A stretch of DNA of 5,994 bases from a virus. Position 1 is the stretch's first letter. Every line of letters starts with the position of its first letter. Location: positions 1-5,994 of IMG/VR virus record IMGVR_UViG_3300045988_001368; one strand, given 5' to 3'. Positions 100 through 5,994 of this stretch are shown one piece after another. The notes under the pieces are model-generated. The model was not told where the DNA came from, made no database searches, and was given only the letters and a program-made list of their open reading frames with translations. The translations under genes were made by a program, and so were the position numbers.

Positions 100-149
100 C
101 AGCAGCAGAACCTAAAGCAGAACCTGAAGCAAAGGAGGAAGAAAAGTGA
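1..149 (+). CDS. VP3: Internal scaffolding protein VP3, C-terminal part. It continues the ORF that starts at 5646 and wraps the circular junction. The full protein is 132 aa.
   Basis: The frame with codons at 3, 6, 9... continues the 5646 ORF, because 5895 is divisible by 3. It reads ...DITEFPQNIHEYHRMLATAQTNAMKLEELQKKAAAEPKAEPEAKEEEK and stops at TGA 147-149. That stop overlaps the VP1 GTG start as GTGA. The acidic/lysine-rich tail and the position just upstream of VP1 are typical of gokushovirus VP3. Confidence 0.8.
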   Translation, partial: DITEFPQNIHEYHRMLATAQTNAMKLEELQKKAAAEPKAEPEAKEEEK

Positions 150-1843
150 ATCGAAACAATGAACGGCACTTTAACCAGATTCCGAAAATGAAGGCAAGTC
201 GAACACGATTCAACCGTGACCAGACCATTCTCACAACGTTTGATTCCGGCAAACTGATTCCATTTTACGTGGACGAAGTATTACCAGGCGACACGTTTAG
301 CGTGGACACGTCTGCAATTATCAGAATGACCACACCAAAGTATCCGGTGATGGACGATGCCTTCATTGACTTCTACTACTTCTACTGTCCGAACAGAATC
401 CTGTGGGATGACTTCAGACAGTTCATGGGAGAAGTAGAAGACACACCTTGGACGCCAACTAAAGAATACAAAGTACCAAAGTTAGTATTTAACACTGGAA
501 CGCAAAGCCAACCGTTTGAAGGAAGTATTTTAGACTACATGGGAGTACCGACAAAGGCAATCAACCCCCAAAAAAATAACAGAGTAGGAATAAACGCATT
601 GCCTGTCAGAGCATACGTCAAAATCTGGAACGAATTTTTCAGAGATGAAAACGTAGACAACTCAGCAACATTAAAAACGACAAGTGAAGATCAAAGCTAT
701 GAAGACGGGGGAGAAAATGAAACACTAGACGAAGTTTTAAAGCAAGCATGGAAAGGTGGCAGATGCTTGCCGGTAAACAAGTTCCACGACTACTTCACAA
801 GCTGTCTCCCATATCCTCAGCGCGGACCAGAAACGACATTGCCGATAACGGGCAACGCACCTATCAGATTGGGAAACCAAAACGCAACTTATCTAGAATT
901 TGGTGGACCAGTAGAAATGGTACTAGGAGCAACAAGTGCATCAGACAAACCCGGTTCTCTGGCATATACAAACAAAACGGGAAAGCCCGGAGATAGAAAA
1001 GCTATGCTTTTCACCGGAAAGGAAAAAACAAGCGGCGAAATAGGAGCGGGAGGATGGATGTATGCAGACCTAAGCGAAGTAACCGCTACAACCGTCAACG
1101 ACCTGAGAAAAGCCGTAGCAGTACAGCAGTACTACGAAGCACTTGCAAGAGGTGGCAGCAGATACCGCGAGCAGGTGCAAGCGCTGTGGGATGTGGTTAT
1201 CAGCGATAAAACCGTGCAAATCCCGGAATACCTTGGCGGTGGCAGATATCATGTCAACATGAACCAAATCGTGCAGACCAGCGGACAGCAGACGGACACA
1301 GACACACCTATAGGCGAAACCGGTGCAGTATCAGTAACGCCAGTCAATGAAAGTAGCTTTACGAAATCTTTTGAAGAGCACGGATTTGTAATCGGTGTCT
1401 GTTGTGTGCGACACAATCACAGTTACCAGCAAGGCTTGGAGCGTTTCTGGAGCAGAACTGACCGACTGGACTACTATGTACCGCAGTTCGCAAACTTAGG
1501 TGAGCAGCCTGTAAAAAAGAGGGAAATCATGCTCACAGGCGAAACAACAGACGAAGAGACGTTTGGATATCAGGAAGCCTGGTCAGACTACCGGATGAAA
1601 CCTAACCGCGTATCAGGCAAAATGAGAAGCAACGCAACCGGAACACTGGACTTCTGGCACTACGCGGACGACTACAAAGCCGTACCGACACTGTCACAAG
1701 AGTGGATGGCGGAAGGAAAAGAAGAAATTGCGCGAACGTTAATCGTACAGGAAGAGCCGCAATTTTTCGGTGCTATCAGGGTAGCAAACAAAACCACAAG
1801 ACGGATGCCGTTGTACAGCGTACCGGGCTTGTACAAACTGTAA
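146..1843 (+). CDS. VP1: Major capsid protein VP1 (Microviridae F-like capsid, gokushovirus type), 565 aa.
   Basis: The N-terminal signature is FNRDQTILTTFDSGKLIPFYVDEVLPGDTF. Other conserved blocks are LPVRAYVKIWNEFFRDEN, YYEALARGGSRY, IPEYLGG, FEEHGFVIGV and FGYQEAWSDYR. The GTG start at 146 lies 7 nt after a strong SD (GGAGG, 134-138). The size is typical of gokushovirus VP1. Confidence 0.95.
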   Translation: MNRNNERHFNQIPKMKASRTRFNRDQTILTTFDSGKLIPFYVDEVLPGDTFSVDTSAIIRMTTPKYPVMDDAFIDFYYFYCPNRILWDDFRQFMGEVEDTPWTPTKEYKVPKLVFNTGTQSQPFEGSILDYMGVPTKAINPQKNNRVGINALPVRAYVKIWNEFFRDENVDNSATLKTTSEDQSYEDGGENETLDEVLKQAWKGGRCLPVNKFHDYFTSCLPYPQRGPETTLPITGNAPIRLGNQNATYLEFGGPVEMVLGATSASDKPGSLAYTNKTGKPGDRKAMLFTGKEKTSGEIGAGGWMYADLSEVTATTVNDLRKAVAVQQYYEALARGGSRYREQVQALWDVVISDKTVQIPEYLGGGRYHVNMNQIVQTSGQQTDTDTPIGETGAVSVTPVNESSFTKSFEEHGFVIGVCCVRHNHSYQQGLERFWSRTDRLDYYVPQFANLGEQPVKKREIMLTGETTDEETFGYQEAWSDYRMKPNRVSGKMRSNATGTLDFWHYADDYKAVPTLSQEWMAEGKEEIARTLIVQEEPQFFGAIRVANKTTRRMPLYSVPGLYKL

Positions 1844-1853
1844 GAAAGGAGGA

Positions 1854-1880
1854 AGCCCGGAGAAATCCGGGCTATTTTTA
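1854..1880 (+). terminator. Rho-independent terminator or attenuator hairpin after VP1.
   Basis: The 8-bp stem pairs AGCCCGGA (1854-1861) with TCCGGGCT (1866-1873) around a GAAA tetraloop. It is followed by ATTTTTA (1874-1880). It sits between the VP1 stop (1841-1843) and the VP2 ATG (1882). Confidence 0.7.
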
Positions 1881-1881
1881 A

Positions 1882-2745
1882 ATGGGAGCATTATCAGGAT
1901 TCTTAACAGCACTCAACGTAGCCGGAAACATTGCAAATACAGTTGGAACATTTGCAAACGCCGGAAAACAAATCGCCGGAGCGTTTGGTGGATGGGGTCA
2001 GACGGGCAACAGCCAGAGCCAGGGCGGAAGCACAAGCCAAGGCGGCGGGCACTCAGAAAGCGGAAGCCAAGCGGGAACAAACATCCAACAGGTAAATGAC
2101 TGGCTTAAACAGGCATATGCATACCAAGGGCAAGAAGCAGCCATGCAAGGTAAATACAACAGTCAAAGCATGCTAAAACAGATGGGTTACAACACCTTAC
2201 AAGCAATCATGCAAGGCGTATATAATCACATTGAAAACAGCGTAGCAATGAACTACAACAGTGCAGAAGCACTAGCAAACCGTGAATGGCAAGAGCACAT
2301 GTCAAGCACAGCATACCAGCGAGCCGTTGAGGACATGAAAAAAGCAGGGCTTAACCCTATCTTAGCTTTTTCAAATGGTGGCGCAAGCACACCAGGCGGT
2401 AGTGCGGGAACAATCAGCGGTGCGAGTATGGGTCTCGCAAGCAGCAGTGCACTAGGAGTAAGCAGAAGCGGCGGATTCGTACCAAATGCATACTCAAGTT
2501 CAAGCTGGAGTCAAAGCGACTGGTATAATGCAGCGCAAAGCTGGCAACAAATGCTTAGTACGACACATATGACGCCATACGGACTGCAAAAAGCGCTTAC
2601 AGAAGTCGGAAACGACACAAGCAAAGCCATTACAGATGCAACAGCAAAGGCAGACAAAGGCGCAGGGCAGAACAGAAGCATGAAGCCACAAGACAAAACA
2701 GGAAGCTACGGAGAAAAACGAAAGCCAGGTGATTATTTAAAATGA
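1882..2745 (+). CDS. VP2: DNA pilot / minor capsid protein VP2, 287 aa.
   Basis: It carries the conserved microvirus pilot-protein block REWQEHMSSTAYQRAVEDMKKAGLNPILAF. The N-terminus is hydrophobic and Gly/Ala-rich (MGALSGFLTALNVAGNIANTVG). A G/S/Q low-complexity linker follows at about nt 1987-2076. Its position directly after VP1 fits. The TGA stop overlaps the VP4 ATG as ATGA at 2742-2745. Confidence 0.9.
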   Translation: MGALSGFLTALNVAGNIANTVGTFANAGKQIAGAFGGWGQTGNSQSQGGSTSQGGGHSESGSQAGTNIQQVNDWLKQAYAYQGQEAAMQGKYNSQSMLKQMGYNTLQAIMQGVYNHIENSVAMNYNSAEALANREWQEHMSSTAYQRAVEDMKKAGLNPILAFSNGGASTPGGSAGTISGASMGLASSSALGVSRSGGFVPNAYSSSSWSQSDWYNAAQSWQQMLSTTHMTPYGLQKALTEVGNDTSKAITDATAKADKGAGQNRSMKPQDKTGSYGEKRKPGDYLK

Positions 2746-3761
2746 GTTGTTACAAGCCATTAATAAGGCTGTACAACCCGGAAAACAAAGACATAAGCGG
2801 GCGGGTGTATTCACTTGCCCGCTTTTCTGAAATATCGGGAAAACAGCTCAAATATGAAGATTTGATGTATAGAAAAGATGTCATGCTAATACCATGCGGG
2901 CAGTGTATCGGATGCAGAATCAGACAGAGAGAAGACTGGACAACACGAATAGAATTAGAAGCACGAGACTATCCAAGAGAAGAAGTCTGGTTTATAACAT
3001 TAACATATGACGATGACCACGTACCAGGCATGATAGTAAGCACAGGCGAAATCATGCGAAAAGTACAGTATGTCTGGAAGCCGGGAGAGAAGCGCCCTGA
3101 AAGCGTCCAAACGTTGCTATATACTGACGTTCAAAAGTTCTTAAAACGTCTCAGAAAAGCTTATAGGGGCAAATTACGCTATTTTGTAGCAGGAGAGTAC
3201 GGAGAACAAACAGCCAGGCCGCATTATCATATGATACTGTATGGATGGCAACCAACAGACCTGGAGCACCTATACAAAATACAACACAACGGATATTTCA
3301 CAAGTAAATGGTTAGCGGACCTATGGGGCATGGGTCAAATCCAGATAGCACAAGCAGTGCCGGAAACCTATAGATATGTTGCGGGATACGTTACGAAAAA
3401 AATGTACGAAATTGACGGTCAAAAAGCAAACGAATACTACGAACTAGGGCAACAAAAACCTTTTGCATGTATGAGCCTAAAGCCAGGTTTAGGAGATAAC
3501 TATTACCAAAAGCACAAAGCAGAAATCTGGAGACAAGGCTATATCCAATGCACAAACGGCAAACGCGCACAAATTCCGCGCTATTATGAAAAAATGATGG
3601 AAGCTGAAAACCCACAAAGATTATGGAGAATTAAACAGAACAGACAAGCAACAGCAATTGCAGAAAACCGGCTAAAGTACGAAAACACAAACTTTGCAGA
3701 ACAATGCAAGACGAAAGAAAGGGTCATCAAGAAGCAGATGAAGAAGAGAGGGACACTTTAA
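2742..3761 (+). CDS. VP4: Replication initiation protein VP4 (HUH rolling-circle endonuclease, phiX174 A-like), 339 aa.
   Basis: A Cys cluster (PCGQCIGCR) and motif 1 (FITLTYDD) are present. The HUH motif PHYHMILYG has its HYH codons at 3222-3230. The two-tyrosine catalytic motif YVAGYVTKK compares with YVAKYVNK in phiX174 A. Confidence 0.95.
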   Translation: MSCYKPLIRLYNPENKDISGRVYSLARFSEISGKQLKYEDLMYRKDVMLIPCGQCIGCRIRQREDWTTRIELEARDYPREEVWFITLTYDDDHVPGMIVSTGEIMRKVQYVWKPGEKRPESVQTLLYTDVQKFLKRLRKAYRGKLRYFVAGEYGEQTARPHYHMILYGWQPTDLEHLYKIQHNGYFTSKWLADLWGMGQIQIAQAVPETYRYVAGYVTKKMYEIDGQKANEYYELGQQKPFACMSLKPGLGDNYYQKHKAEIWRQGYIQCTNGKRAQIPRYYEKMMEAENPQRLWRIKQNRQATAIAENRLKYENTNFAEQCKTKERVIKKQMKKRGTL

Positions 3762-3780
3762 CAGTGTCATGGTGTCACCT

Positions 3781-3812
3781 AGCCCAGTACCTATCAAGTA
3801 AGGTACTGGGCT
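3781..3812 (+). other. Perfect 12-bp stem-loop 20 nt downstream of the VP4 stop. Its function is unknown. It could be an ssDNA structural signal (origin or priming site) or a T-tract-less terminator.
   Basis: AGCCCAGTACCT (3781-3792) and AGGTACTGGGCT (3801-3812) are exact reverse complements around an 8-nt loop, ATCAAGTA. No T-run follows; the next bases are ATTGTCGTC. Confidence 0.6.
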
Positions 3813-3873
3813 ATTGTCGTCTAAAGACTCCATGTATCACACTATTCAGTCTATCAAATAGCTATTCTCTTAT

Positions 3874-3916
3874 CGCGCGTGCGCACGCGCGCGAAACGCA
3901 CACGCGCGCACGCGCG
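3874..3916. repeat. GC-rich island made of two 20-nt alternating pyrimidine-purine tracts, with an internal 18-nt perfect palindrome and a direct repeat.
   Basis: Bases 3874-3893 (cgcgcgtgcgcacgcgcgcg) and 3897-3916 (cgcacacgcgcgcacgcgcg) each show perfect Y-R alternation and are separated by AAA. Bases 3874-3891 are their own reverse complement. GCGCACGCGCG occurs at both 3881-3891 and 3906-3916. Bases 3875-3883 are also complementary to 3907-3915, which allows an alternative fold. Confidence 0.85.
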
Positions 3917-3931
3917 GCCTTTTAGGCGCTA

Positions 3932-3961
3932 TTGTTCGCAAGCTCACAAGCGCCGTATAAT
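3932..3961 (+). promoter_or_regulatory. Weak candidate sigma70-type promoter.
   Basis: A perfect TATAAT lies at 3956-3961, but the -35 is poor (TTGTTC, 3932-3937, 18-nt spacer). No ORF lies directly downstream. This is a low-confidence call. Confidence 0.25.
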
Positions 3962-3993
3962 ATTAACTTGTTGTAGGAGTAGTAGTAGGCAAT

Positions 3994-4167
3994 GTGGAAA
4001 AGTTGAAAAGTACTAAAATTTAACGTTAGAACGTAAATAAAAAGCAAAAAACACTGTTGAAAGTTTTGTTGAAAAATTGTTGAATTGTTGAAAGTTCGTT
4101 AAAATGACGGAAACCTTTGTGCAACATTTTGTTGAAAACCTGTTGAAAGTGTTGAAAGTGTTGAAAA
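3994..4167 (+). repeat. Iteron-like, one-directional array of (T)GTTGAAA repeats in non-coding DNA.
   Basis: Perfect GTTGAAA copies start at 4002, 4056, 4068, 4087, 4131, 4142, 4151 and 4160. Seven of these are preceded by T. One-mismatch copies lie at 3994 (GTGGAAA), 4079 (GTTGAAT) and 4098 (GTTAAAA). The last three perfect copies form a 9-nt tandem, TGTTGAAAG x3, at 4141-4167. All copies share one orientation, mostly spaced 8-12 nt apart. An A-rich tract at 4035-4054 sits inside the array. Confidence 0.85.
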
Positions 4168-4308
4168 CGCGCACAGCGCTAAAAAGGAATGGATTTAGCC
4201 GAATTCCGCTGCGCTCCATACGGCAAGGCGCTAAAGCGCCCTCAAAACAAAGGAGCAAAACCGGGTTACAAGAGAAGGTTACAATTTTATTACAAAACAG
4301 CAAAATCA

Positions 4309-4337
4309 TTGAAAAACCTATTGACAAGTGATATAAT
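4309..4337 (+). promoter_or_regulatory. Strong sigma70-type promoter with an extended -10, driving the accessory ORF cluster.
   Basis: The -35 is TTGAAA (4309-4314). An exact 17-nt spacer follows. The TG extension is at 4329-4330 and a perfect TATAAT is at 4332-4337. The predicted transcription start is near 4344, about 25 nt before the SD-preceded ATG at 4369. Confidence 0.6.
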
Positions 4338-4368
4338 AAGGTCAAGGAAAGAAAGGAAGGTGCCCAAA

Positions 4369-4530
4369 ATGACACAGAAAAGCTACAGAGTCGAAATGAC
4401 AAACACAAAAACAGGCAAGAAAGAAGTACGCCACACATTAGCAGAAAGCAAAGAACTCGCAAAGCGTCTCATCTGGGTAAGAAATGACATCGAAAGCCAA
4501 TGGAAGATAAACAAAATAGAAGAGGATTAA
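4369..4530 (+). CDS. Hypothetical small protein, 53 aa, first ORF of the accessory cluster.
   Basis: ATG 4369 lies 8 nt after AGGAAGG (4355-4360 region) and downstream of the 4309-4337 promoter. The sequence is MTQKSYRVEMTNTKTGKKEVRHTLAESKELAKRLIWVRNDIESQWKINKIEED. The track ORF begins at 4189, but that extension would contain the promoter and has no usable SD. I recognise no family. Confidence 0.5.
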   Translation: MTQKSYRVEMTNTKTGKKEVRHTLAESKELAKRLIWVRNDIESQWKINKIEED

Positions 4531-4545
4531 GGAGGGTTGACAAAA

Positions 4546-4935
4546 ATGCTTAAAAGCTATATCATGGACACAGAAGCAAACGAAAAAGTCGGACAGCACT
4601 TCAAAGTAAAGGAATTCGCTTGCAAAGACGGTTCACAGGTAGTTTTTATAGACAGTTACCTAGTGTCAATCCTAGACATCCTCAGAAACGAAGTCGGAAA
4701 ACCTGTAATCATCAACAGCGGATACCGGACACCGACAAGGAATAAAGAAGCAGGCGGTGCAAAATACTCATACCATATGCGCGGTATGGCCGCAGACATT
4801 CGAATAAACGGAATGAGCTCAAAAGAAATTGCCGGCAAACTGGATAAAATCATTCCGTATGAATGCGGCATTATCGTATACAAAAACTGGGTGCACATAG
4901 ACACGCGCACCAAAAAATACAGAAAGGGGGTATAA
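4546..4935 (+). CDS. Zinc metallopeptidase of family M15 (Peptidase_M15_3 / DUF882 / VanY-like LAS fold), a candidate peptidoglycan peptidase, 129 aa.
   Basis: The motifs are FKVKEFACKDG, INSGYRTPTRNKEAGGAKYSYH and MRGMAAD, followed by NWVHIDTR. The zinc triad is H77 (CAT 4774-4776), D84 (GAC 4795-4797) and H117 (CAC 4894-4896), with H-x6-D spacing as in VanX/VanY-type enzymes. ATG 4546 lies 10 nt after GGAGG (4531-4535). The track's TTG at 4537 is too close to the SD. There is no N-terminal signal or TM segment. Confidence 0.85.
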   Translation: MLKSYIMDTEANEKVGQHFKVKEFACKDGSQVVFIDSYLVSILDILRNEVGKPVIINSGYRTPTRNKEAGGAKYSYHMRGMAADIRINGMSSKEIAGKLDKIIPYECGIIVYKNWVHIDTRTKKYRKGV

Positions 4936-4936
4936 A

Positions 4937-5059
4937 ATGGCACTGATTTCCATTAAAGACGTCAAACAGGCAATCCGCATTATGATGCAGATTCTCGAAA
5001 AGCTTGACGAAATCTACCACGCACTGCACGATAGCATCAACGAAAACGAAAAGGAGTAA
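4937..5059 (+). CDS. Hypothetical small protein, 40 aa. It is not in the supplied ORF track, presumably because it is below the length cutoff.
   Basis: ATG 4937 lies 6 nt after GGGGG (4926-4930) and 1 nt after the peptidase stop. It reads MALISIKDVKQAIRIMMQILEKLDEIYHALHDSINENEKE and ends at TAA 5057-5059. It fills what would otherwise be a 128-nt gap in a compact genome. It looks like an amphipathic helix, not a TM segment. Confidence 0.45.
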   Translation: MALISIKDVKQAIRIMMQILEKLDEIYHALHDSINENEKE

Positions 5060-5063
5060 AGCC

Positions 5064-5291
5064 ATGATGAACAAAACATGGAACGTAAGAGACCAGACCA
5101 AAGAAGCACTGGAAGATTTACTCGAACGAAAGTACAAAGAAATTGACGGCAATTACAAGATGCTTAAAAAAGTATCAAACATCGGAGACGCTAAAAAGCT
5201 AGTAGAAGAGATTTGGAAAATGAAAAGCTTTGCAAACGCCATCGAAATGGAACTAATCAGAAGGGAGTACAACAATGGCACGACATCGTAA
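5064..5291 (+). CDS. Hypothetical protein, 75 aa, hydrophilic and predicted helical.
   Basis: ATG 5064 lies 7 nt after AAGGAG (5051-5056). The track start at TTG 5004 has no SD and would overlap the 40-aa ORF. The sequence is MMNKTWNVRDQTKEALEDLLERKYKEIDGNYKMLKKVSNIGDAKKLVEEIWKMKSFANAIEMELIRREYNNGTTS. I recognise no family. Confidence 0.55.
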   Translation: MMNKTWNVRDQTKEALEDLLERKYKEIDGNYKMLKKVSNIGDAKKLVEEIWKMKSFANAIEMELIRREYNNGTTS

Positions 5292-5397
5292 AACAATGAA
5301 CGGCGCAAAAGACCGGCGAATGTTCAACGTAACCGCAAGAAAGACGAAAGCTATCAACCTTAGCCAGAAGCCCATGCGCGGCGGCATCCGGCTGTAA
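5275..5397 (+). CDS. Small, highly basic DNA-binding/packaging protein (phiX174 J-like, gokushovirus ORF8-like), 40 aa. It is not in the supplied ORF track.
   Basis: ATG 5275 lies 7 nt after AAGGGAG (5261-5267). The sequence is MARHRKTMNGAKDRRMFNVTARKTKAINLSQKPMRGGIRL, with 12 K/R against 1 acidic residue. The C-terminal PMRGG(I/F/Y)RL-type ending is common in small basic microvirus proteins. It overlaps the upstream ORF by 17 nt in another frame. Confidence 0.7.
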   Translation: MARHRKTMNGAKDRRMFNVTARKTKAINLSQKPMRGGIRL

Positions 5398-5413
5398 AAG
5401 AAAGGAAAAGACA

Positions 5414-5653
5414 ATGGAGCATCTGTATTATGGACTGTGGGACAATGTAGCAAAGTGTTACGCATGGGTAGGCGAAAGCAAGAACGACGCAACCTTTGCA
5501 CGGATGTGCAATGTTATGGCAAAGGACGGAAAAACCTTTGTAGGGCAGGCGCCGGGGGACTACGTCGGCTACAAGCTGGCAAAGTTCAACGATGAAACCG
5601 GAGCCTTCGCCAACGACAAAGAGAAAGCATGGGAGGGCAGGCCTAATGAATAA
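5414..5653 (+). CDS. VP5: VP5-like conserved gokushovirus non-structural protein, 79 aa.
   Basis: The pattern is Y..WDNVAKCY......NDATFARMC.......F...PGDYVGYKLAKFNDETGAF. This matches my memory of the gokushovirus VP5 signature (..D.k...y..PF....A.R.F....PEDY.LY.iG.yDd.tG.f). An AGGA SD lies 7 nt upstream. Its stop overlaps the VP3 start as ATGAATAA. The position before VP3 is canonical. Confidence 0.65.
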   Translation: MEHLYYGLWDNVAKCYAWVGESKNDATFARMCNVMAKDGKTFVGQAPGDYVGYKLAKFNDETGAFANDKEKAWEGRPNE

Positions 5654-5994
5654 GCGATACGAAGAGGGGCGAAAGCCCTTCTTTTCTGAATCGGGCGAAA
5701 AGATGCGGAAACAATATGTCTGGACAAAGAACGAAAAAGGACAGGAAGTGCTGCAAGAAACAGCACCAATCGACATCCAACAGGAAATTGAAAGCTATGC
5801 AGACGAGTGTGATATCAAAAGCATTGTCCGAAAAGCAAGTTTTGACCCGCAGTTTCTGAAAAGCCTGTCACAAGGAGCATTAGATGACACATACACGGAC
5901 ATTACGGAATTTCCGCAGAACATTCACGAGTATCATCGCATGCTCGCGACCGCACAGACAAACGCCATGAAGCTTGAAGAGCTGCAAAAAAAAG
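5646..5994 (+). CDS. VP3: Internal scaffolding protein VP3, N-terminal part. The ORF runs off the window end and continues at 1-149 on the circle.
   Basis: ATG 5646 lies 9 nt after GGAGG (5632-5636). It reads MNKRYEEGRKPFFSESGEKMRKQYVWTKNEKGQEVLQETAPIDIQQEIESYADECDIKSIVRKASFDPQFL... The IQ.EI.SY...CDI..I block is typical of gokushovirus VP3. There is no stop before the window end. Confidence 0.8.
   Translation, partial: MNKRYEEGRKPFFSESGEKMRKQYVWTKNEKGQEVLQETAPIDIQQEIESYADECDIKSIVRKASFDPQFLKSLSQGALDDTYTDITEFPQNIHEYHRMLATAQTNAMKLEELQKK
5896..5994. repeat. Terminal redundancy, second copy. It is identical to 1-99.
   Basis: Exact 99-nt identity with the window start. Confidence 0.95.

Follow-up and report, generated by a model that had tools for sequence, protein, structure and literature searches.

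The question raised by this locus is what occupies the ~1.5 kb that separate the gene for VP4 from the genes for the J-like DNA-binding protein, VP5 and VP3 in the genome of a gut gokushovirus. The DNA analysed here, which is called the window over its whole length (IMG/VR record IMGVR_UViG_3300045988_001368, 5,994 nt), represents one circular gokushovirus genome with a unit length of 5,895 nt, bases 1-99 being repeated at 5896-5994 as a 99-nt assembly overlap, and all of its genes lie on one strand. An earlier reading of the letters without database searches (the sequence-only reading) regarded the interval 3762-5274 as an accessory insertion with its own promoter, namely a modular, separately transcribed cassette of four open reading frames (ORFs) behind repeat-rich non-coding DNA, and named beforehand, as an observation that would speak against this view, the universal presence of homologues in close relatives. 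We favour, on balance, the reading that the interval is the control region of a ~5.9-kb gut gokushovirus together with the first genes of its single long operon, and not a self-contained cargo insertion. The most conspicuous part of this control region is a module that resembles the bacterial chromosomal origin, oriC.

The close relatives used for comparison are 80 loci that encode a VP4 protein 89-96% identical to that of the window and that were obtained by a scan of IMG/VR using VP4. Of these, 44 are demonstrably circular, with a median unit length of 5,698 nt. Parts of the interval are also present in ~50 related GenBank genomes, which measure 5.2-6.1 kb and come from the gut of humans, pigs and monkeys; the nearest record, KT264791, is 86% identical to the window genome across 84% of its length. 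The positional conservation of the control region and the compensatory changes given below are derived from an alignment of 71 genomes. Three related IMG/VR contigs (L011, L014 and L043) are not counted in the statistics. At 7.5-10.9 kb, they exceed the length of one genome and lack overlapping ends, and they may represent concatemers, faulty assemblies or genomes that carry large insertions.

The VP4 gene is followed by 607 nt without a gene-like ORF, in agreement with the ~600 nt of non-coding DNA noticed in the sequence-only reading. The variability of this region is 0.05-0.08 in all three phases, as compared with 0.18-0.29 at the third codon positions of the flanking genes, so that the non-coding DNA is 3-4 times less variable than the neighbouring third codon positions. 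Its blocks A-E are 89-93% identical among the relatives, and many positions between 3956 and 4250 are nearly invariant. The region is therefore not filler, but is functional and is the most constrained DNA of the interval. The repeats noticed in it are real and non-random. The 8-mer TGTKGAAA is present in 8 exact copies within 174 nt (3993-4166), all on the + strand, against 0.63 expected, and two strong hairpins (HP1 and HP2) are present besides. Two potential hidden genes, a 75-aa ORF at 4104-4331 and a 113-aa extension of orf53 from 4189, recur in the relatives and are rejected, because neither shows codon periodicity. The interval 3762-5274 gives no Rfam match at E<=1 and no tRNA.

The resemblance to oriC is based on the order of three elements, an AT-rich stretch, five DnaA-trio-like triplets and an array of DnaA-box-like 9-mers (Table 1). 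Within the AT-rich stretch, AACTTGTTG (3965-3973) is near-invariant; the stretch as a whole is conserved at 90% or more and is also retained in the distant lineages L006-L010; by a compositional test only, the upstream 22 nt have a median AT content of 68% among the relatives. The trio-proximal box, TGTGGAAAA (3993-4001), is equivalent to TTTTCCACA and is the sole perfect match to TTWTNCACA in the genome. Four further boxes have one mismatch to this consensus, and the repeat unit TGTTGAAA(A) is the reverse complement of TTTTCAACA. A basal unwinding system is recognized by at least three DnaA-trios (3'-NAN-5', consensus 3'-GAT-5') at a distance of no more than 16 bp from a box (PMC8287927). In the window, at least three trios lie within this distance on the correct strand, the spacer to the proximal box being 4 nt. 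The complete module is found by strict criteria in 73 of 91 loci, with a spacer of 4 nt in 71 of them, and the number of loci that have a run of at least three TAG triplets 4 nt from a DnaA box is likewise 71. The box array is ~93% identical in co-oriented relatives. The module lies between VP4 and the peptidase gene in a phage genome, not on a chromosome beside dnaA/dnaN, and is a mimic or a captured copy rather than a chromosomal oriC.

The module is not confined to the close relatives. It is also present in the distant lineages L006-L010, and a scan of IMG/VR for the trio-box junction gives, among the matches listed, at least 80 microvirus contigs with VP4 proteins that are 29-96% identical to that of the window. 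The same scan gives, again among the matches listed, 32 matches outside microviruses, nearly all of which are single chance matches. Conservation of the same motif over this range of VP4 identity suggests that the motif is recognized by a host factor rather than being a Rep-specific site. This bears on the possibility that the TGTTGAAA repeats and TAG triplets are iterons for VP4 or another phage protein, which would constitute a phage-specific origin without DnaA. Rolling-circle plasmids such as pMV158 have a nick-site hairpin and nearby direct repeats bound by Rep, and the location of HP1, 140 nt upstream, as well as the departure of most repeats from the DnaA consensus by two positions, is consistent with such an arrangement. 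However, iterons normally co-vary with Rep, whereas identical repeats and triplets accompany VP4 proteins with as little as 29-44% identity to that of the window; in a bacterial contig free of microvirus genes, these repeats lie on both sides of dnaA, as described below; and it is specifically the trio-proximal position that retains the canonical GTGGAAAA core across loci. The repeats are therefore improbable as iterons.

The orientation of the module varies among the relatives. Seven close relatives (L003, at 1212-1422, L026, L054, L057, L062, L063 and L074) carry the 212-nt block 3956-4166 at exactly the same place but in inverted orientation, and in a second clade, in which VP4 is ~37% identical (L009, at 5379-5575), it is inverted and relocated to the VP2-VP4 spacer, ~100 nt upstream of VP4. 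HP1 and HP2 are never inverted. If the module is active in either orientation and at two sites, it should act on duplex DNA, as would be expected of a site for DnaA but not of a strand-specific signal. The exactness of the in-place inversion, together with the CGCCGT/ACGGCG junction repeats of L003, might instead be explained if the block were an invertible switch that flips during infection. This explanation is very hard to sustain and is rejected, because the inverted copies are only 77-82% identical to the block of the window, as compared with ~93% for co-oriented copies, and thus are old stable alleles; in addition, there is no recombinase gene, and long flanking inverted repeats are absent, the junction repeats being only ~6 nt long. 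The idea that the orientation of the module sets the packaged strand finds no support, the AT skew at the four-fold sites of VP1 being positive for both orientations (+0.52 co-oriented, +0.43 inverted).

A chromosomal counterpart of the array is present in a metagenome-assembled Clostridia contig, L123, which contains 15 TGTTGAAA boxes and interspersed TGTGGAAA boxes directly beside a gene for a 453-aa DnaA protein. The junction beside dnaA reads TAGTAGTAGTAGTAG-GGGGG-TGTTGAAAC-TGTTGAAAA, and further boxes lie upstream of dnaA, so that this box dialect occurs on both sides of the gene, while TTATCCACA is absent throughout 8 kb. The phage module thus appears to share its box dialect and its architecture, including the order of elements and their strand polarity, with the chromosomal origin of L123. 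The dialect, in which TGTTGAAA is used without TTATCCACA, points to particular Clostridia that are Ruminococcus- or Oscillospirales-like. This hint agrees with the earlier guess of Faecalibacterium, which was based on the peptidase, and the extended -10 element and the strong Shine-Dalgarno (SD) sites of the virus would fit a Firmicutes-type host as well. Two loci of Ruminococcus metagenome-assembled genomes, L100 (~800-1200) and L103 (2620-2990), contain 14-16 TGTTGAAA/TGTGGAAA boxes per 400 nt in intergenic DNA. Such arrays may represent additional clusters of DnaA boxes in the group to which the hosts probably belong. No plasmid homologue of the module was found.

These observations can be accommodated by the following mechanism. 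Host DnaA would bind the box array on the double-stranded replicative form, oligomerize onto the trios and open the adjacent AT-rich stretch, which would provide an entry point for the host helicase. Amplification or maintenance of the replicative form would thereby come under the control of the host and keep pace with it, and titration of DnaA by the array would be a side effect. The steps of this mechanism do not deserve equal confidence. Binding of DnaA to the array is probable, and an origin-type function of the module is a tentative proposal, to be held with more doubt than belief. The same reserve applies to the suggestion that a large, widespread group of gut gokushoviruses has acquired, by capture or by evolution, a complete DnaA unwinding module of the chromosomal type, by which the replicative form would become a DnaA-controlled minichromosome that the initiation machinery of the host opens and copies independently of, or ahead of, the phage Rep.

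The boxes might also bind DnaA or Spo0A without firing an origin, and serve either as a sink that halts initiation of the host chromosome or as a sensor that tunes the downstream promoter, P1, to growth or sporulation. The Spo0A box TGTCGAA differs by one base from TGTTGAA, and Spo0A boxes are used by phage phi29. Between the end of the array and P1 lie 143 nt, and the -35 region of P1, AAAACCTATTGA, resembles the repeat AAAACCTGTTGA. In Bacillus subtilis, plasmids that carry the incC box region inhibit chromosomal initiation (PMC6669920). However, the boxes are no more tightly conserved than the trios, the spacer and the AT-rich stretch, none of which would be needed by a pure sink or operator, and the module of the second clade lies ~1 kb from P1, upstream of VP4, which weakens a promoter-specific role. 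A sink or sensor is unlikely on these grounds, though a better candidate than the iterons. In the promoter type of ~24 relatives, DnaA might also touch the promoter. The -35 region of P1 in the window (AAAACCTATTGACAAG, 4309-4326) resembles the box repeat unit (AAAACCTGTTGAAAG, 4135-4146).

The promoter itself, which the sequence-only reading had recognized as a near-consensus extended -10 promoter, is the best match in the window, and a strong promoter is present at this position, ~500-550 nt past the VP4 stop, in 48 of 50 circular relatives, in which it is represented by several promoter sequence types. When the coding strands of 50 circular genomes of the clade are scored for promoters of the sigma-70/sigma-A type, 64 sites with a score of at least 11.5 are found in the 34 kb of control region and slot (the segment between P1 and the peptidase gene), against 0 in the other 254 kb. 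At a score of at least 10.5, the density is 2.08/kb in control region and slot, against 0.031/kb in the rest. By consensus and conservation, P1 appears to be the only strong promoter of the genome. The downstream genes overlap or are separated by gaps of no more than 38 nt. These results suggest that P1 is the promoter of the whole co-oriented gene string and not of a separate cassette, so that the promoter of the sequence-only reading is real and conserved but does not belong to a cassette. P1 would drive orf53-M15-orf40-orf75-J-VP5-VP3-VP1, followed by attenuation after VP1 and read-through to VP2 and VP4. The one good terminator-like hairpin, directly after VP1, is kept in 85 of 86 relatives and probably acts as an attenuator by which the ratio VP1:VP2/VP4 is set. 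Another site resembling a promoter, TTGACA-17-TATCAT (4537-4565), overlaps the start codon of the peptidase gene and recurs in relatives with a filled slot. Transcription from it would start inside the peptidase gene, and its recurrence is limited to relatives in which this coding sequence is conserved as well. Rather than a real promoter, the site is probably a by-product of coding sequence or a relic.

The four ORFs of 53, 129, 40 and 75 aa behind P1 are each preceded by a purine-rich SD sequence 7-12 nt upstream, and the 129-aa product is a Peptidase_M15_3 protein, as the sequence-only reading had supposed. Its score against PF08291 is 78.7 bits, compared with a cut-off of 23.2. The segment YSYHMRGMAAD aligns to the D-Ala-D-Ala carboxypeptidase 1LBU across SxHxxGxAxD, and the zinc-binding H-x6-D motif and a C-terminal His are present, with WVHID near the C-terminus. 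The protein is most likely a cell-wall hydrolase that cuts peptidoglycan cross-links at lysis; a role at entry is possible. By inspection, it has no signal peptide. M15_3 peptidases of human-gut gokushoviruses were reported in 2012, with horizontal transfer from Faecalibacterium-like Firmicutes and an endolysin role proposed (PMC3394797), and exchange of peptidases between microvirus families was noted later (PMC9239249).

The next gene, orf40, has a median amino acid identity of 95%, as compared with 78% for VP5 and 86% for VP3, and a variability of 0.062/0.032/0.219 at the three codon positions; by inspection, its product is a single amphipathic helix. The AlphaFold2 model of orf75 consists of two long helices (predicted local distance difference test score, pLDDT, 85). 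A fold search with it gives one significant match (E <= 0.001), an uncharacterised UniProt entry, the next best match being an uncharacterised protein of a Microviridae sp. Pfam, PHROGs and NCBIfam give no usable match that would indicate a function for orf53, orf40 or orf75. In more than 75 relatives, the substitutions in M15, orf40 and orf75 are concentrated at third codon positions, indicating that these are real genes under purifying selection. Together with the constraint on the non-coding DNA, this agrees with the suggestion of the sequence-only reading that the region is under selection.

The conclusion drawn from this suggestion, namely that the region is an accessory cassette with functions in lysis, host takeover, superinfection exclusion or anti-defence, fares less well. 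M15 is present in 77 of the 80 close relatives, orf40 in 77 and orf75 in 75, always in the order M15-orf40-orf75-J-VP5-VP3; two of the three relatives without M15 are truncated contigs, and no relative with an empty site is found among ~170 microvirus contigs. The observation that had been named beforehand as contrary to an insertion is thus the one made, and the three genes, like the non-coding blocks, are clade-core rather than accessory. M15, a zinc peptidase, belongs to the core of this lineage and is an ancient acquisition. A compositional signature of insertion is likewise missing in GC content and codon usage, the distance in relative synonymous codon usage from the remaining core genes being 3.32 for the cassette, 3.54 for VP4 and 3.64 for VP2. 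No terminator separates orf75 from the J-like gene, with which it overlaps by 17 nt, and the genes continue unbroken from the sole strong promoter into J-VP5-VP3-VP1. Moreover, orf40 occurs without M15 in L008 and L073, and orf75 without M15 in L007 and L073, upstream of J, which suggests that orf40 and orf75 are old small proteins that form part of the J/VP5/VP3 block and are not tied to M15. The layout that the sequence-only reading considered typical, in which VP4 is closely followed by VP5/VP3, exists, but is only one of several gokushovirus orders; that of Chlamydia phage 2 (Chp2), for example, is VP1-VP2-VP3-ORF8-VP4-VP5.

Four observations nevertheless fit accessory cargo. The genome is large for the subfamily, the M15 peptidases of microviruses are horizontally acquired (PMC3394797), part of the region moves between backbones, and orf53 and the other ORFs of its slot are sporadic. 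The moving part is the stretch E-P1-(orf53)-M15-orf40, where E is the conserved block upstream of P1. It is shared at 68-98% identity with viruses of the second clade, whose VP1/VP4 are only ~40% identical (E element 95-98%, M15 72-84%), and two contigs of that clade, with a VP4 identity of only 37%, have an 83% identical orf53 immediately before M15. This conservation across divergent backbones suggests that the stretch E-promoter-slot-M15-orf40 is exchanged between them. Against the near-universal gene content and the unbroken gene string, these observations leave a separately transcribed accessory cassette improbable, about as much so as the iterons.

What remains of the accessory insertion is orf53, which is present in only 2 of the 80 close relatives (L026 and L070). 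The only truly variable piece of the interval is the slot between P1 and M15. The distance from the -10 element to the M15 start is bimodal, being 21-52 nt in ~33 genomes, which have only a leader, and 191-518 nt in ~32. The long slots contain one or two SD-preceded small ORFs of at least six unrelated families, including that of orf53 (window, L026 and L070). Like orf40 and orf75, orf53 and all slot ORF families are hydrophilic, with a maximum 17-residue hydropathy of no more than 0.45. No family match for orf53 is found in Pfam, PHROGs or NCBIfam; its model consists of a β-hairpin and a long helix (pLDDT 79). The real hot spot of gene turnover is thus this slot of ~200-500 nt directly past the promoter.

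Table 1. Positions in the window of the features described in the text
Feature	Position	Strand	Remarks
VP1	146-1843	+	core gene
Terminator-like hairpin	1854-1873	+	AGCCCGGA GAAA TCCGGGCT, then T tract; directly after VP1
VP2	1882-2745	+	core gene
VP4	2742-3761	+	core gene
Control region	3762-4368		607 nt; single large non-coding region, no gene-like ORF, no coding periodicity
HP1 hairpin	3780-3813	+	13-bp stem, invariant 8-nt loop ATCAAGTA; by repeat and folding tools
HP2 hairpin	3874-3916	+	imperfect, CG-alternating, compensatory pairs
AT-rich stretch	3956-3973	+	candidate duplex-unwinding element; TATAATATTAAC (3956-3967), then TTGTTG
DnaA-trio-like triplets	3974-3988	+	five; TAG GAG TAG TAG TAG (5'-TAG-3' = 3'-GAT-5')
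DnaA-box-like array	3993-4166	+	~11 co-oriented 9-mers; trio-proximal box, then TGTTGAAA(A/G) boxes
E element	4167-4250	+	conserved non-coding block, always directly upstream of promoter; contains GGCGCTAAAGCGCC
P1	4309-4337	+	extended -10 promoter, TTGAAA-17-TG-n-TATAAT, 11/12 + TG
orf53	4369-4530	+	53 aa; sporadic small gene in slot between P1 and M15
M15	4546-4935	+	129 aa; M15_3 (LAS-type) zinc peptidase, PF08291 4.3e-22, phrog_894 (endolysin) 4e-42
orf40	4937-5059	+	40 aa; highly conserved helical protein
orf75	5064-5291	+	75 aa; helical hairpin, 17-nt overlap with J-like gene
J-like DNA-binding protein	5275-5397	+	core gene
VP5	5414-5653	+	core gene
VP3	5646, wrapping to 149	+	core gene

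The remaining elements of the control region flank the module. The loop of HP1, which reads TACTTGAT on the opposite strand, is unchanged in 69 of 71 relatives, and the changes at the stem pair 3785/3808 are compensatory (CG in 57 relatives, AT in 13 and TA in 1). A hairpin with the HP1 loop motif is present in 119 of 171 contigs, at a median distance of 16 nt past VP4 and on at least two unrelated stems. In HP2, the pairs 3880/3910 (TA 48, CG 11) and 3883/3907 (GC 47, AT 14) change in a compensatory manner, and the DNA of 3770-3935, which contains both hairpins, folds with z = -6.4. HP1 may present the nick site of Rep, form the 3' hairpin of the long mRNA, or both, and HP2 possibly serves as a signal when the DNA is single-stranded. 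Identity of the E element to its counterparts in L009 (990-1086) and L010 (1421-1522) is 95-98%, as compared with only 37% for VP4 and a range of 37-84% for the proteins of the two clades. It is not regarded as a structured RNA or DNA, because its fold is no better than those of shuffled sequences (z = -0.35). Its GCGCTAAAGCG motif occurs twice beside the box array of the Clostridia contig L123 (515-575).

The motif of the HP1 loop lies on the strand opposite to the genes, and those of the corresponding hairpins of Chp2 (L243, 2904-2941) and SpV4 (L241, 512-544) lie on the coding strand. At four-fold sites, the strand with the motif is the T-rich one in each of the three viruses. Judging from the strand of the HP1 loop, the gut clade could nick and package the strand antisense to its genes. 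Against this, the GC skew does not mirror the motif strand, and a more ordinary explanation would be purine loading of the mRNA strand. Two IMG/VR contigs, L230 and L235 (VP1 35% and VP4 29% identical), have the trio-box junction and an AT skew at four-fold sites of the opposite sign (-0.65); an ATCAAG hairpin was not found in them. A 28-bp dif-like palindrome, as expected for a dif/Xer site, was not seen by eye, in a visual look without a formal search. In Chp2, the VP3-ORF8 spacer (L243, 2820-2840) contains a tandem pair of perfect DnaA boxes (TGTGCAAAA) at a distance of 12 nt from each other. These boxes are located ~65 nt upstream of its ACTTGAT-loop hairpin and are not accompanied by TAG trios. 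The presence of DnaA boxes beside a hairpin may be a wider gokushovirus trait.

Several observations weigh against the reading of the interval as an oriC-like control region that heads a single operon, and are considered together here. A rolling-circle phage has no obvious need for DnaA. Most of the boxes are two mismatches away from TTWTNCACA, and boxes with no more than one mismatch are not enriched in the genome as a whole (13 found, 13.6 expected). The DnaA-box dialect is known beside dnaA from a single metagenome-assembled Clostridia contig, L123, the arrays of L100 and L103 are not beside dnaA within 8 kb, and the score of the alignment between the phage module and the origin of L123 is driven by repeats, so that capture from a host and convergence are not separable by it. 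A scan of 185,579 genomes by the triple-box pattern, by which L123 was detected, gives 38 loci, most of which are 9-nt tandem repeats and none of which contains microvirus genes, so that this pattern has revealed neither a prophage of these viruses nor a genome of their host. As for the operon, 117 sites with a promoter score of at least 9.5 are present outside the control region and slot, so that weaker promoters are possible. No holin or other membrane-spanning protein is encoded in the interval or by any slot ORF, and the route of M15 to the cell wall is unexplained without a holin-like partner. Both the DnaA module and the operon are, moreover, read from sequence alone.

If the oriC-like reading is true, these viruses could be carried like plasmids by dividing cells, and their host range would be encoded by the DnaA-box dialect. 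The module could then account for the observation that microviruses persist for long periods in individuals, as well as for the carrier state of the one gokushovirus that has been revived. No member of this abundant group of human and animal gut viruses has been cultured, and the oriC-like module offers a testable handle on their hosts and lifestyle. On the reading favoured here, the apparent "junk plus cargo" of the 5.5-6.1-kb genomes is a control region with one promoter.

The known system with which the module is first compared is the basal unwinding system of bacterial oriC, which was reportedly described by Richardson in 2016 and 2019, and further by Pelliciari in 2021 (PMC8287927). The phage module has the same order of elements, the same polarity, a short spacer, a canonical box at the trios and multiple further boxes. 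The trio of Clostridium difficile oriC2, which reads TAGTAGTAATAGTAGTAGG on the complementary strand, has the same polarity to its boxes as that of the phage module (PMC7561715). Unlike a bacterial oriC, the phage module is located in a 5.9-kb single-stranded DNA phage and not beside dnaA, its boxes are all co-oriented and mostly two mismatches from the consensus, and it is known from its sequence only.

DnaA boxes are also present at the origins of other mobile replicons, such as P1 oriR, pSC101, F, R6K and the A-site of the ABC primosome. The phage module would resemble these plasmid and phage origins in borrowing the host initiator through boxes beside an origin of its own. They have few boxes, which act as helpers to their own initiators, and to our knowledge no DnaA-trio array is present in P1 oriR, pSC101, F or R6K, none of which is a microvirus. 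The origin of phiX174 is CAACTTG/ATATTAAT, and its core, ACTTGATA, is resembled by TACTTGAT, the reverse complement of the HP1 loop. The HP1 loop thus carries ACTTGAT(A) in reverse complement, on the strand opposite to the genes, whereas the hairpins of Chp2 and SpV4 present loops with ACTTGAT and ACTTGTT on the coding strand. We know of no gokushovirus in which the nick site has been mapped. Hairpins with conserved loops and compensatory stem changes are also found in the intergenic regions of other microviruses (PMC9865509).

The closest comparison for the gene content is with the human-gut Gokushovirinae that carry M15_3 (PMC3394797; KT264791, KX513868 and MG945xxx), which share the gene family, the host environment and the size class of 5.2-6.1 kb. 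No report linking Microviridae to DnaA boxes or oriC was found in an incomplete literature search, and the module may be described already. Roux et al. (2012; PMC3394797) described the peptidase as a rare horizontally acquired gene, and did not describe the control region, the single promoter, the slot, orf40 or orf75. The peptidase cassette is thus already known, and is clade-core; what is new are the oriC-like DnaA module, the layout with a single promoter and the variable slot proximal to this promoter.

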